The notes beneath the pieces are model-generated. The model made no database searches and was not told the origin of the DNA. It worked only from the letters and a program-made list of their open reading frames with translations. Below are positions 36,185 to 40,564 of a stretch of 57,573 nucleotides of DNA, one piece after another (position 1 is the first letter of the stretch; every line of letters begins with the position of its first letter). Source of the stretch: Nitrospirae bacterium CG2_30_70_394 (GTDB lineage Bacteria; CG2-30-53-67; CG2-30-70-394); NCBI GenBank assembly GCA_001873295.1, contig MNYW01000016.1:1-57573 (forward strand). Reading direction: 5' to 3'. The position numbers were made by a program, and so were the translations under genes.

Positions 36185-36565
36185 CGGCGGAGGATCGACG
36201 AGCCGCCCGGCGAGGACAAGGAGCGGCGTGGTGATCTTCCACTCGGCCGGGAGGGTTGCCCGACCCCCAGGGCAAGACCACCCACCCCGCGACGACCTCG
36301 GCGTTTGCCGTGGTGGTACGCCGCTTCCTCTTGATCTTGCCACCGAGAGCCAGACGGCGCCGCGCGCGGGGACGCGGATCTCGTCCAGACTCCACGCGAG
36401 CGGCAAGTCGATGGTTTGAGCAGAGTGCGGCCGTTGCACGTTCGCAGGCGGACTCCATGGCAGCCTGCACCCTGCCTGGCCCCGTCCTTGCGCCGCGCTA
36501 CTTCCGGCCGTTGCCCTCGGCGCGCGGTCGGGTGCGATCGCGCGCCCCCGGTCTTCCGTGGTGCG

Positions 36566-38293
36566 CTACTTCCGGTTGTCGCCCTCGGCGCCGTCCTCGA
36601 GTAAGGCTGGGCCGCTGCGCAACAAGGCGAGGAGCTCGGTGCCGCTCGGGGCGGCGACCGCGGCCTGGCGGAGGGTCGCGCTGCGGAACAGACGGGCGAT
36701 GTCGGCGAGGATCTCGAGGTGGCCGCGTTCGTCGCCGCTGCCGGTTACCACGAGAAAGATGAGCTGGGCCGGCTTGCCATCGGGCGCATCGAAGTCGATC
36801 CCGCGACTGGAGACCCCCAAGGCCACCGCCGGCCGCGTGACCCCCGGCAGGCGGGCGTGGGGGGTGGCGACGCGCTCTCCGAGTCCCGTCGGCATCAGCT
36901 CTTCCCGTGCCCAGGCGGCCGCGAAGACCTCCTTCGCGTTCAGTCCGGACGCGGCTCCGAGGGCCGCGGCGAGGCGCTCGATGGCGGCGCGCCGGGTTGT
37001 GTCACCGAGGTCGGGTACAAACGCACGGGCCGGCAGGTGGTCCACCAGACGGCACGGTGTGTGGCGCCGCAGCACGTTCTTGACCAGCGAGCCGCTGGCC
37101 AACGAGGTGAGCACCGCCATGACCACCAGGGCCACGAACAGCCGCTCGTCGATCACCCGTGCCTCGAGGGCGGAGAGGCCGAGGATGATCTCCATGGCAC
37201 CGCGCGCGTTCATGCCGAATCCGACCGCCCAGGATTCGCGTGTGCCCAACCCGCCGGCGCGTGCCCCGAGGACGCTGCCGAGGATCTTGCCGGCGGAGGC
37301 GGTGATCAGCACGAACAGCACGAGGCCGAGATCGAAGTGGGCGACAAAGTCTAACTTAAGCCCGATCCCGGCGAAGAACAGCGGGGCGAAAAACGACGAG
37401 ACGAAGTCGTCGACCACCGCCATCGTACGGCGGCGCAAGTGGCGGGAGTCGCCGATCGCCACGCCAACCAGAAACGCCCCGAAGATGGCGTGCACACCAA
37501 TCCACTCGGTGAACCCCGCGGCCAACAGCGCCAGGCTCAGGGTGAAGGCGAGGACCCCCGCGGGCCACGAGGTGTGGGCGTGGATCCACGGCAGCGACCC
37601 ATCCACGACGCGCCGCACGCCCGCGATCATCACGACCGCGAAGATCAGCACGAACGCGACGGTGGCGCCGGGCGAGAAGATGCGCCCCTCGCCACCGAGC
37701 GTGCCAAGGACGATGGCGAAGATCATCCAGCCGACCAGATCCTGCAGCACGGCGGAGGCGACGATCAGCATGCCGAGGTCGGTCTGGAACACGTCCAGAT
37801 CGCGCAGCGTCCGGGCGATGACCGGCAGGGCGGAGATCGACATCGCCGTGCCGAGAAAGAGGGCGAAACCGAAGAGTGGTGTCACCGGCTGGTGGCCAAG
37901 CCAACGGGGCACTAGCCAGGCGCTGCCGAAACCCACCCCAAACGGGATGGCCATTCCGGCCACGGACACGGACAGGGCGGCCCGCCCCTGACGCCACACC
38001 GAGCCGAGATCGACCTCCAGACCCGCCATCAGCAGAAAGAGCGCGGCGGCCAGAACCGATAGCCCTTCGCGGACGTTGGCGACCGGCCCGCTGAGGGGAA
38101 AGATGGCGTGGCCGACGGCGGGGAAGATCGCGCCCAGACAGGTGGGGCCGAGGACGATCCCCGCGACGATCTCGCCCACGATCGTGGGTTGTCCCAGATG
38201 GCGCGCGACCTCGCCGAACAGGCGCGCGAGGACGAGCAGGGTGCCCACGGCAAAGAACATCATCGAGATGTCGAGCGCGTGGAGGGAGCCCAT
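36566..38293 (-). CDS. Cation:proton antiporter (CPA2/Kef-type) fused to a C-terminal PTS EIIA(Ntr/Fru)-type domain
   Basis: Na_H_exchanger TM core (GQPTIVGEIVAGIVLGP...). The C-terminal ~150 aa carry a PTS_EIIA_2-like region (MPTGLGERVATPHARL...AQLIFLVVTG). Confidence 0.85.
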   Translation of the reverse strand: MGSLHALDISMMFFAVGTLLVLARLFGEVARHLGQPTIVGEIVAGIVLGPTCLGAIFPAVGHAIFPLSGPVANVREGLSVLAAALFLLMAGLEVDLGSVWRQGRAALSVSVAGMAIPFGVGFGSAWLVPRWLGHQPVTPLFGFALFLGTAMSISALPVIARTLRDLDVFQTDLGMLIVASAVLQDLVGWMIFAIVLGTLGGEGRIFSPGATVAFVLIFAVVMIAGVRRVVDGSLPWIHAHTSWPAGVLAFTLSLALLAAGFTEWIGVHAIFGAFLVGVAIGDSRHLRRRTMAVVDDFVSSFFAPLFFAGIGLKLDFVAHFDLGLVLFVLITASAGKILGSVLGARAGGLGTRESWAVGFGMNARGAMEIILGLSALEARVIDERLFVALVVMAVLTSLASGSLVKNVLRRHTPCRLVDHLPARAFVPDLGDTTRRAAIERLAAALGAASGLNAKEVFAAAWAREELMPTGLGERVATPHARLPGVTRPAVALGVSSRGIDFDAPDGKPAQLIFLVVTGSGDERGHLEILADIARLFRSATLRQAAVAAPSGTELLALLRSGPALLEDGAEGDNRK

Positions 38294-38362
38294 GGTGGTT
38301 CCGAAGGTCGTGAGGGGTTGCGACGGTACGGTCGTCCATGACCGGTCGTGGCAGACCAAGAG

Positions 38363-38570
38363 TTTGTCGGACTTTGTCGATCGTGGCGAGAAGCAGCGGG
38401 CTCGAGTCCGGATCGACCCGTGCGTAGAGCCCGTGGGGCTCGTGCGACGAAGAACGTGATACGAGTCCGGGCCCGCGCGTCCTGCCCCACGAGTCCTGCC
38501 CCACGAGTCCTGCCCCACGAGTCCTGCCATGGTTCCGCTCGGCTCAGGAGATCGGGACAGAGTCCGCCCC
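38363..38570. repeat. Dispersed intergenic element, copy X3
   Basis: Left end TTTGTCGGACTTTGTCGATCG (38363-38383). Right end GGGACAGAGTCCGCCCC (38554-38570), inverted. Interior aligns with X1 and contains the 14-bp tandem repeat. Confidence 0.7.
38479..38528. repeat. Tandem repeat, 14-bp unit GTCCTGCCCCACGA x 3.6
   Basis: Three perfect units (38479-38492, 38493-38506, 38507-38520) plus a partial fourth. Related CGAGTCCGG motifs occur at about 38402 and 38461. Confidence 0.9.
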
Positions 38571-38964
38571 CTCCTCGTCTGCGCAGCACGGCGCAGTAGA
38601 GAGAATGGGCCGGGCGCTTAGGATCTTCCCGGCCGCGTCCCCGCCCGCACCGGCGGTCCACCGCGGCCAGGAAGCAGTGGGCGCGGCGCCGGGGGCCAAG
38701 GTCATGGGCTGGCGGCCTGAGCCGTCGATCGCGCATCCGGCCGGCCGCGGCCGGCGTGGGGGAGCAGCGGACGGGCTGACCGATCCACCCGGGTGGCGCG
38801 CCGGCGCGGCCATTCACCATGGTGGCGACCGGCTGGGCCCGGCGCGGGGCTGGTGGATTCACCCGTAAACGGGCGCATCTGGCCGGCCGTGGCTGGCGAC
38901 GCGGGGCGGTCGCTCACGCTAGAGCGGCGTAAGAGTCGCCGTGCGGTAACGCGACTCCTGCCGA

Positions 38965-39178
38965 GGTCACCCCTGCGCGCGCGGAGGGCAGGGGGAGGCG
39001 TGCGCCGCGCGTACCGGTAGCCCCGGAAGGTCACCCCTGCGCGCGCGGAGGGCAGGCTCGCTCAGCAACAGGACTACACCCCGCCCCCAGGTCACCCCTG
39101 CGCGCGCGGAGGGCAGGGGACAAAGCGGGCGCGGGGATGTTCCGTCATGCGGTCACCCCTGCGCGCGCGGAGGGCAGG
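38965..39178. CRISPR. Orphan mini-CRISPR array: 4 identical 28-bp repeats, 3 spacers (36, 33, 33 bp)
   Basis: GGTCACCCCTGCGCGCGCGGAGGGCAGG at 38965, 39029, 39090 and 39151. Periods are 64, 61 and 61 bp with unrelated spacers. The repeat has an internal hairpin CCCTGCG-CGCG-CGGAGGG. No cas genes anywhere in the 57.6-kb window (about 39 kb on one side of the array, 18 kb on the other). Confidence 0.6.
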
Positions 39179-39289
39179 GGGAGGCGTGCGCCGCGCCGCG
39201 CTTCGAGGTCCTTGCGTGCACCACCCGTGGGCGGTCGCCGCGCCCTGGGTGGTGGCTCCGCCCTGCCTCGCTCCAGCCGGGCCGCGAGG

Positions 39290-39553
39290 TCAGACGACGA
39301 GGCTCGGGTCCTCGAAGTTGGCGAGGAACTCGGCGACGTGGAGGCCGAGGTAGAGGCACCGATTGGACTCGATGCACTGGTCCGCCTCGACCGTGTCGAG
39401 GTAGGTGGTGAGGGTGTGGTCGCCCTTCCGCAGGGTGATGACCCAGGTTCCCTGCTCCTCGTCGCGCCACGCTACTACCTCGATGCTGTGGTCGCGGAGG
39501 GTGGGGTACAGCTGACGAATCTTGTCGATGAGCGTCTGTGAGGTGTACGGCAT
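39290..39553 (-). CDS. Small conserved-looking hypothetical protein (87 aa)
   Basis: Strong SD GGAAAGGAGAG 5 nt before the ATG. Balanced, non-repetitive sequence MPYTSQTLIDKIRQLYPTLRDHSIEVVAWRDEEQGTWVITLRKGDH...CIESNRC. Confidence 0.6.
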   Translation of the reverse strand: MPYTSQTLIDKIRQLYPTLRDHSIEVVAWRDEEQGTWVITLRKGDHTLTTYLDTVEADQCIESNRCLYLGLHVAEFLANFEDPSLVV

Positions 39554-39616: not shown

Positions 39617-40564
39617 CTATTCCTCGCTGGCCCCTCCTCCGAGGGAGGTGCCGGGCGCCAGCGGGTGGCCTTGGAGAAAGGCCCCGGCCGTCATCCGCCG
39701 TTTCCCCTCGGGTTGGAGCTCGGTGATCGCCAGGCAGCCGCTCGCGCACGCCACCACGATCGCGCAGCTCTCTATCGCCACCACCTGACCGGCGGGCCGC
39801 GCGGTCTCTCGCTCTAGCGGCACGGCGGCGTGGATGTTCAGGCGCTGGCCGTTGAGGTAGGTGAAGGCGCCGGGCCACGGGGTGAAACCGCGGATCCGGC
39901 GGTCGAGCTCCGCGGCCGGCCGCGACCAGTCGAGGCGGCCGTCGTCACGGTTGAGCTTGGGGATGGCGAGGGCGAGGTGGTCGTCCTGCGGAATCGGCGT
40001 CAGATCGCCGCGCTCCAGCCGCCGGAGGGTCTCCACCAACAGCGGGCCGGCGAGGGCGGCGAGGCGGTCGTGGAGGGTGGCGGCGGTCTCGCGCGGAGCG
40101 AGGGGGATGCGGCTTTGCAGAAGGATGTCGCCGGTGTCGATCCCCTCGCCCATAAACATGGTGGTGACGCCGCTGTCGCGTTCGCCGTTGACGATCACCC
40201 AGTGGATCGGTGAGCTGCCGCGGTAGCGGGGCAGGAGCGAGGCGTGGACGTTCACCGCCCCGAGGCGGGTCATCTGCAAGACGGCCTTGGGGAGGATGGC
40301 GCCGAAGGCGACCACCGCCATGGCGTCCGCCGCCACCGCCCGCAACCGCGCCTGCGCCGCCTCGTCCCTCAGGGTGGGCGGCTGGAAGACTGGGATCCCC
40401 AGGGTCTCGGCGCGCTGCTTCACCGGGGACGCCTGCACGTGCTTGCCGCGCCCCGCCGGCTTGTCCGGCCGGGTGACCACCAAGGCGACCTCGATCCCTG
40501 CCGCGACCAGGGCGTCGAGACAGGGGACCGCAAACTCGGGGGTGCCCATGTAGATCGTGCGCAT
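39617..40564 (-). CDS. fmt: Methionyl-tRNA formyltransferase
   Basis: MRTIYMGTPEFAVPCL N-terminus and the motifs NVHASLLPRYRG and TTMFM. Full-length, 315 aa. Confidence 0.95.
   Translation of the reverse strand: MRTIYMGTPEFAVPCLDALVAAGIEVALVVTRPDKPAGRGKHVQASPVKQRAETLGIPVFQPPTLRDEAAQARLRAVAADAMAVVAFGAILPKAVLQMTRLGAVNVHASLLPRYRGSSPIHWVIVNGERDSGVTTMFMGEGIDTGDILLQSRIPLAPRETAATLHDRLAALAGPLLVETLRRLERGDLTPIPQDDHLALAIPKLNRDDGRLDWSRPAAELDRRIRGFTPWPGAFTYLNGQRLNIHAAVPLERETARPAGQVVAIESCAIVVACASGCLAITELQPEGKRRMTAGAFLQGHPLAPGTSLGGGASEE

Follow-up and report, generated by a model that had tools for sequence, protein, structure and literature searches.

The DNA analyzed here, a stretch of 57,573 bases referred to as the window, carries a short repeat array in a non-coding gap of ~1 kb, and all neighboring genes are located on the minus strand (Table 1). 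Read along this strand, the order is fmt, a small conserved ORF of 87 amino acids (ORF87), the array, ~435 nt of DNA with a GC content of 72–77%, a 14-nt VNTR, and the antiporter gene, which encodes a Na+/H+ exchanger-EIIA fusion. The initial annotation of the locus had placed a gap of this size between an antiporter gene and a small ORF next to fmt, and our gene annotation agrees with this arrangement.

Exact matching identified four copies of the 28-mer GGTCACCCCTGCGCGCGCGGAGGGCAGG, whose start-to-start distances of 64, 61, and 61 nt leave spacers of 36, 33, and 33 nt. The four perfect repeats, the spacer lengths, and the 61-bp period given in the initial annotation were thereby reproduced. 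The 28-mer is not a solitary REP-like element in this region, as the rest of the window (57,573 bases) contained no further copy even when 3 mismatches were tolerated; the number of copies expected by chance is 0. Nor are the spacers diverged copies of each other, the second doubt that had been raised about the array. They are unrelated among themselves and to the repeat, the spacer-spacer and spacer-repeat similarities lying within the background of random genomic 33-mers (p = 0.19–0.62), and Tandem Repeats Finder (TRF) did not call the region as a tandem repeat. As had also been noticed before, positions 38965–39010 and 39151–39196 (46 nt) are 100% identical.

Table 1. Features of the array locus (positions in the window; preferred orientation, minus strand).
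Feature	Position	Strand	Evidence or remark
Lineage-specific 3.0-kb block	about 36255..39270	-	Synteny in L043-L053, L056; BLAST boundaries
Na+/H+ exchanger-EIIA fusion gene (antiporter)	36566-38293	-	
CRISPR repeat furthest from fmt, last in preferred orientation; minus strand CCTGCCCTCCGCGCGCGCAGGGGTGACC	38965..38992	-	Exact match; in every allele
Chimeric 36-nt spacer Sold'	38993..39028	-	Compared with the 33-nt allele in L002, L032, L041
CRISPR repeat copy	39029..39056	-	Exact match
Spacer S2, 33 nt; minus strand TGGGGGCGGGGTGTAGTCCTGTTGCTGAGCGAG	39057..39089	-	Missing in allele L041
CRISPR repeat copy	39090..39117	-	Exact match
Spacer S1, 33 nt; minus strand GCATGACGGAACATCCCCGCGCCCGCTTTGTCC	39118..39150	-	Missing in allele L041
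CRISPR repeat nearest fmt/ORF87, first in preferred orientation	39151..39178	-	Exact match
GC-rich flank of 111 nt, putative leader, ORF87 stop codon to array	39179..39289	-	
ORF87, small conserved 87-aa ORF	39290-39553	-	
fmt	39617-40564	-	

To place the array in its genomic context, the surrounding genes were inspected. Among the 71 long ORFs that the 57.5-kb window contains, PADLOC detected no core Cas family, in agreement with the initial annotation; the cas-free DNA extends from the array over 38.9 kb in one direction and 18.4 kb in the other, and includes no type I-E operon (cas3, cse1, cse2, cas7, cas5, cas6e, cas1, cas2). A PADLOC match to 'RtcR CARF_AAA_HTH' proved to be an NtrC-type REC-sigma54-HTH regulator without a CARF domain. 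The reported absence of mobile-element genes is likewise borne out by Pfam annotation, which revealed only housekeeping genes over 10 kb on each side. Among the genes of the window are those for a two-component sigma-54 system, ClpB, CTP synthase, aspartokinase, a LeuA-like protein, PriA, CoaBC, UvrB, and others.

The GC content around the array is 0.72–0.77, and the flank accordingly offers no AT-rich leader, as had been stated before. Neither a sigma-70-like promoter nor an intrinsic terminator was found in the 111-nt flank, and no IHF consensus within 1 mismatch occurs on either side of the array. The flank can form a hairpin at 39219–39255, and its fold is no better than those of shuffled sequences. 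The idea that the GC-rich gap on the other side represents a decayed extension of the array was discarded, since the best match to the repeat has 12 mismatches in 28 positions and does not exceed shuffled controls. The GC-rich DNA that separates the array from the VNTR contains an imperfect direct duplication of ~50 nt (38705–38757 and 38846–38898, ~142 nt apart), for which neither an Rfam match nor an ORF with a family match was obtained. The VNTR itself (38461–38528) has a 14-nt unit in tandem, which reads ACGAGTCCTGCCCC on the plus strand, and precedes the start codon of the antiporter gene (38293) by ~170–240 nt. Its full units number about 2 in strains L004 and L005, 3 in L002 and the window, and 4 in L003, and it could act as a phase-variation-like switch.

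The repeat was then compared with type I-E repeats. Its plus-strand RNA folds into a stem of 7 pairs, one of which is G-U, with an A bulged out (-10 kcal/mol), and the minus-strand RNA folds more weakly (-7.8 kcal/mol); the stability of the hairpin is not above that of shuffled controls on either strand (z = 0.29 plus, 0.94 minus). The 7-bp stem with a tetraloop described in the initial annotation is therefore imperfect, and the hairpin is weaker than had been stated. The palindrome is central, and the 3' tail that follows the stem comprises only 4–5 nt. Because the repeat is nearly symmetric, the orientation of the array is ambiguous, and the polarity of the alleles described below mildly favors the minus strand. 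In the E. coli K-12 CRISPR-1 type I-E array, which we checked directly as a control, the period is 61/62 bp. Aligned with the I-E repeat of E. coli, the repeat showed no significant similarity (p = 0.14 for the minus strand, 0.8 for the plus strand). A search of Rfam with the repeat gave zero matches; it likewise gave zero for the genuine E. coli array, where no CRISPR-DR family was reported on CRISPR-1 (L057, 1150–1910) even at E values up to 10, and the negative result is therefore uninformative. Of the proposed type I-E spacing, the 61-bp period is confirmed, and the repeat sequence, the hairpin, and the leader add no confirmation of type I-E. We regard an assignment to type I-E specifically as an even call.

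The origin of the spacers and the distribution of the repeat were addressed by database searches. The proposed comparison of the spacers with viral and plasmid sequences yielded no protospacer-type match: blastn found none in 50,697 phage and 72,556 plasmid records, and no exact 20-mer of a spacer occurs in IMG/VR. The only matches to phages and plasmids, which are weak (E about 0.01, in ClpP-like head-protease genes), span the repeat-spacer boundary and were not accepted as protospacers. Most natural spacers have no detectable match (10.1101/137356). The repeat is absent from IMG/VR and, with one exception, from 185,579 GTDB representative genomes; the exception, a match of a Hyphomonadaceae MAG to the 22-nt repeat core, is solitary, lies inside a coding region, and was judged to be due to chance. 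Metagenome contigs contained no repeat followed by A or C, a weak negative given that the collection misses even the known JGI contig, and a loosened repeat core retrieved 25 solitary chance matches and no array. Overall, no second array with the same repeat was found in the searched collections, the metagenome part of this result again being a weak negative.

To evaluate how the array varies within the species, we made use of the exact Fmt protein, which is encoded in 150 blocks of a public assembly collection (ENA, JGI, and the NCBI MAG GCA_002780165.1), and drew further strains from variant Fmt sequences in the same 90% cluster. The flanks of the array in these assemblies are 99.4–99.96% identical to the window, which indicates that they represent one species population. 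Along the minus strand, starting from fmt and with R for the repeat, the largest allele is that of L032, R-S1-R-S2-R-Sx-R*-Sold-R, in which one of the five repeats (R*) carries a single substitution. The allele of L002 is R-S1-R-S2-R-Sold-R, and the window shares R-S1-R-S2-R-Sold'-R with L003–L005 and L039, Sold' being a 36-nt form of Sold. The array of L033 and L040 is that of the window, accompanied by two C-to-T changes in the flank beside the first repeat, and L041 has R-Sold-R only.

The repeat number of the alleles is thus 5, 4, or 2, and they differ from one another in complete repeat-spacer units. Each of the unaltered spacers, S1, S2, Sx, and Sold, has a length of precisely 33 nt. Taken in order, the spacers of each allele form a subset of the series S1-S2-Sx-Sold present in L032. 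Sold, as such or as Sold', is common to all alleles and occupies the end far from fmt, the variable spacers being on the fmt side. Among ~15 loci from many samples, neither a strain-private spacer at the fmt-side end nor the intermediate alleles Sx-Sold and S2-Sx-Sold were seen. A strain phylogeny could not be used to tell spacer gain from loss, as no more than 24 SNPs separate the strains over 9 kb, and their patterns are mosaic. Spacer Sx (L032, 5537–5569), which occurs in the five-repeat allele only, contains the 9-mer GGTCAGGGG twice; the notion that spacers are decayed fragments of the repeat, prompted by two occurrences of CAGGGG(G)T in Sx, found no statistical support. The substitution next to Sx (repeat 5570–5597 of L032, first base C to G) is the sole one seen in any repeat. 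A further locus flagged by a simple CRISPR detector, L023, is an 87-nt tandem repeat.

We next asked whether the array is shared with related species. The comparison covered seven sister lineages, among them the closest relative by Fmt (82% identical). Their homology to the window stops at ~39273–39290 and resumes at ~36240–36297, and the intervening 3.0-kb block is therefore specific to the window species. It comprises the array, the ~435 nt of GC-rich non-coding DNA, the 14-nt VNTR, the antiporter gene, and ~310 nt downstream of the latter, and is missing from all seven sister lineages, where an intergenic stretch of 47–85 nt stands in its place. None of these sister lineages has an array, an antiporter gene, or a remnant of the repeat. 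Three of them carry a gene for a 161-aa protein, and then CopD, at a distance of 115–155 nt behind fmt and ORF87; in three others, represented by shorter contigs, the same 161-aa gene follows ORF87 after 120–220 nt; and in the remaining two, unrelated genes come after ORF87. The nearest named relative is a 'Nitrospirae bacterium' MAG with 76% identity in Fmt, and identity outside the clade is ~52%.

The junctions of the block (39271–39289 and 36236–36254) carry an imperfect 19-nt direct repeat, CCTCGCGGCCCGGCTGGAG and CCTCCCGGCCGAGTGGAAG, which we put forward with low confidence as bounding the block. There is no recombinase gene in the block. The antiporter gene ends, over its final ~25 nt and the stop codon, in one copy of an imperfect 28-nt direct repeat, CGCCGAGGGCGACAACCGGAAGTAGCGC and CGCCGAGGGCAACGGCCGGAAGTAGCGC, whose other copy lies ~68 nt downstream (36495–36522 and 36563–36590); this repeat may be the scar of a recombination that brought the gene in. 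An attempt to trace a donor through the antiporter was unsuccessful, because its nearest homologues are only 64–66% identical and reside in unrelated contexts without arrays. In two sister lineages, a BrnT/CopG-type toxin-antitoxin pair or a lone CopG-like gene is inserted beside the epimerase gene, ~1.7–1.9 kb upstream of fmt (L043, 2295–2853; L044, 1709–2267; L048, 2228–2500). The window species is without this insertion, indicating repeated gain or loss of small cassettes in this neighborhood.

ORF87 was considered as a Cas2-like or array-associated gene. It has no match in Pfam, NCBIfam, or PADLOC, and it follows fmt in every lineage in which the upstream gene is on the contig, including the sister lineages that lack the array, and this candidate was dropped. 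Its family comprises seven 90%-identity clusters (75–100% identity) among 5.8 billion and is limited to this lineage; 49 of the 87 positions are invariant, among them the cysteines C60 and C66.

The variation in whole units, the uniform spacer length, and the distinctness of the spacers argue for a genuine CRISPR array, and the 'CRISPR-like array' of the initial annotation is strengthened by the first two of these properties. With four copies of 28 nt, the array also lies within the usual range for CRISPR arrays, three or more near-identical repeats of ~23–47 nt. An origin from Cas1-Cas2, whatever the present state of the array, appears probable to us. Weighing against it are the absence of cas genes from the window, of protospacers, and of leader signals and the insignificant similarity to the E. 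coli repeat. For the more specific proposition that this very small array is now static or decaying, a relic, we consider the chances to be about even; the points just named were counted against it, together with the weak hairpin, the lack of any positive sign of acquisition in the population, the ambiguous orientation, and the false CRISPRs known from GC-rich genomes. On this proposition, the spacer-integration machinery would have built the array at some past point, and the array would now stand isolated, with no cas gene in the window, in a species-specific 3.0-kb block of an uncultured groundwater-type Nitrospirae-like lineage. Whole repeat-spacer units would since have been lost by misalignment between identical repeats during replication, which is the simplest explanation of the alleles; deletion alone accounts for the variation. 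The array is presumably inactive at present. Isolated arrays without spacer turnover have been described as likely relics (PMC5294841), and unit deletion through replication misalignment between repeats has been proposed for CRISPR arrays (PMC8047081). Were no matching cas operon present elsewhere in the genome, the array would be an inert relic; were there one, the array would most likely be transcribed from the minus strand, downstream of fmt-ORF87, and yield 61-nt crRNAs.

That such an operon, probably of type I-E, exists elsewhere and that the array is still active, the series from L041 to L032 reflecting stepwise gain on the fmt side, is, in our estimation, the less probable state. The position of Sold far from fmt and of the variable spacers near it corresponds to the polarity of acquisition at the leader end (PMC8047081), the repeats are perfectly conserved, and isolated arrays that function at distances above 1 Mb from their cas genes have been documented (PMC13142298). 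However, stepwise gain is not reflected in the ~15 loci, which lack both intermediate alleles and strain-private spacers; moreover, leader features and cas genes are missing from the window, and the searched collections, with the weak metagenome part noted above, hold no second array with this repeat.

It is rather improbable that the structure was never made by Cas1-Cas2 and is a GC-rich repeat cluster, such as four protein-binding sites in phase or an interspersed repeat restricted to the species, in the long region upstream of the antiporter gene. The array does lie upstream of this gene on the same strand and arrived in the same block, it has only 2–5 repeats, and the genome has a GC content of ~70%, GC-rich genomes being known to yield false CRISPRs (PMC5294841). 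The missing cas genes, protospacers, and leader signals and the weak hairpin would also fit. Such a cluster is nevertheless difficult to reconcile with four different spacers of 33 nt, perfectly conserved 28-nt repeats, and changes strictly in 61-nt units. The spacers are mutually unrelated, the array is not a tandem repeat, and solitary copies occur neither in the 57.5 kb nor in the loci of the sister species. Of the properties by which isolated and false CRISPRs are separated (PMC5294841), spacer diversity and the tandem or dispersed character place the array with the former, and companion cas genes are lacking within the window. Slightly less probable still, we believe, is the proposal that array, non-coding DNA, and antiporter gene entered the species as a 3.0-kb cassette without a recombinase gene, or that the array was co-opted for control of the antiporter.

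The comparison of alleles also sheds light on the 46-nt identity between the two ends of the array. The intact 33-nt Sold, TTCCGGGGCTACCGGTACGCGCGGGGCGAGTCC (ending …GCGCGGGGCGAGTCC), was found in L002, L032, and L041. It consists of TTCCGGGGCTACCGGTACGCGCGG followed by GGCGAGTCC, whereas the 36-nt Sold' consists of TTCCGGGGCTACCGGTACGCGCGG followed by CGCACGCCTCCC, and the flank beside the fmt-side repeat ends with …GCGCGG followed by CGCACGCCTCCC. Sold' thus retains the first 24 nt of the ancestral spacer (39005–39028), and the last 9 nt of the latter are replaced by a 12-nt patch (38993–39004) copied from 39179–39190. The remainder of the 18-nt identity, the 6 nt CCGCGC (39005–39010), was already common to both sites, and the leader-side segment 39179–39196 (18 nt) is the source of the duplication. 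The 33-nt form is taken as ancestral since it is intact in three allele contexts, whereas the chimeric form occurs in one only. In L033 and L040, the flank has C-to-T variants at 39181 and 39188 where the internal copy keeps the C's, which makes the copying an older, separate event.

The crossover points coincide with the identical 28-nt repeat and with a 6-nt microhomology, GCGCGG. The most economical mechanism would be a template switch between repeats during replication, an event of the same class as the unit deletions discussed above (PMC8047081). While copying the far repeat, a nascent strand would have moved over to the repeat on the fmt side, been extended by 12 nt into the adjoining flank, and returned at the GCGCGG microhomology. 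In this way the last 9 nt of the oldest spacer would have been overwritten, lengthening it from 33 to 36 nt. The 46-nt identity is most likely a small copying accident that affected some strains only.

The initial annotation had explained this identity differently, by growth of the array through duplication of a repeat-plus-flank unit or, alternatively, by a first spacer that is a copy of the leader-like flank. Both were suggested by the window, in which either end of the array shows the same 46 nt, the repeat plus 18 nt. Growth by duplication is contradicted by the intact 33-nt spacer in three allele contexts, including the two-repeat allele; of the second option, the 12-nt patch holds true and the spacer as a whole does not, its other 24 nt being unrelated to the flank. 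We thus consider the initial model very unlikely. The array is not an assembly artefact: several contigs end inside it, precisely at the points of allele divergence, and the NCBI MAG has an N-gap there, which could suggest that mis-joined repeats made the chimeric spacer or the allele differences, but the chimeric junction is preserved even in this MAG and is identical in independent ENA, JGI, and NCBI assemblies from different samples, MEGAHIT (k141) assemblies among them, and since it shares only 6 nt, far below the k-mer length of any assembler, it could not have been created in this way, leaving this explanation with practically no probability.

The locus provides a clean natural example of the changes that a minimal CRISPR array undergoes in a near-clonal environmental population. 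Besides unit deletions, these include a rarely documented micro-event, the replacement of the end of the oldest spacer by 12 nt of flank at a microhomology of 6 nt. It also illustrates that an isolated array can share a species-specific block with an ordinary transporter gene in the absence of mobile-element genes. Small arrays without cas genes such as this one would likely be scored as low-confidence or false by annotation pipelines, and a population comparison looking for uniform 33-nt spacers and whole-unit changes is a cheap means of rescuing such calls in metagenomes. A new question of CRISPR biology would arise only if the genome were entirely without cas genes and the array still expressed. 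If the block did enter as a cassette, it would represent an 'immune memory' moved horizontally in a deep uncultured lineage, and the flank-to-spacer patch would have given the array a second, internal leader-repeat junction, to which spacer integration could be redirected.

The array resembles E. coli K-12 CRISPR-1 (type I-E) in its 28 (or 28+1)-nt repeat, its 33 (or 32+1)-nt spacers, and its 61-bp period, and both combine a GC-rich, partly palindromic repeat core with unique spacers. In the E. coli type I-E repeat, an 8-nt handle follows the stem. The stem of the present repeat is interrupted and is followed by 4–5 nt instead. Unlike type I-E arrays, the locus has no IHF site, no AT-rich leader, and only 2–5 repeats, and whereas E. 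coli CRISPR-1 adjoins cas1-cas2, no cas operon is adjacent here. With false CRISPRs, be they tandem, STAR-like, or REP-like (PMC5294841), the array has in common a GC-rich short repeat without companion cas genes in view. In contrast to these, its spacers are diverse and of uniform length, its repeat is not dispersed in the available region, and TRF was negative.

Closer parallels are found among isolated arrays. P. aeruginosa CRISPR3 (described in a preprint, PMC13142298) is, as here, an isolated array in a strain- or species-specific segment that is missing from close relatives; its leader is the same as that of a cas-adjacent array, and it is associated with mobile elements, whereas neither a partner array nor a mobile-element gene was found here. 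The isolated array of S. pyogenes and CRISPR2 of E. faecalis (PMC5294841, PMC4580645) are located far from cas genes, as is the present array on the scale of the window, and, like it, each displays a near-constant spacer set across strains, with deletion or duplication of units and without evident turnover. The present array differs from them in being much smaller, in belonging to a deep uncultured lineage, and in that its separation from cas genes, and with it the putative 'orphan' character named in the initial annotation, applies to the window. Taken together, the locus is most likely an ordinary small isolated CRISPR array of a known kind, with a minor micro-evolutionary detail of its own.
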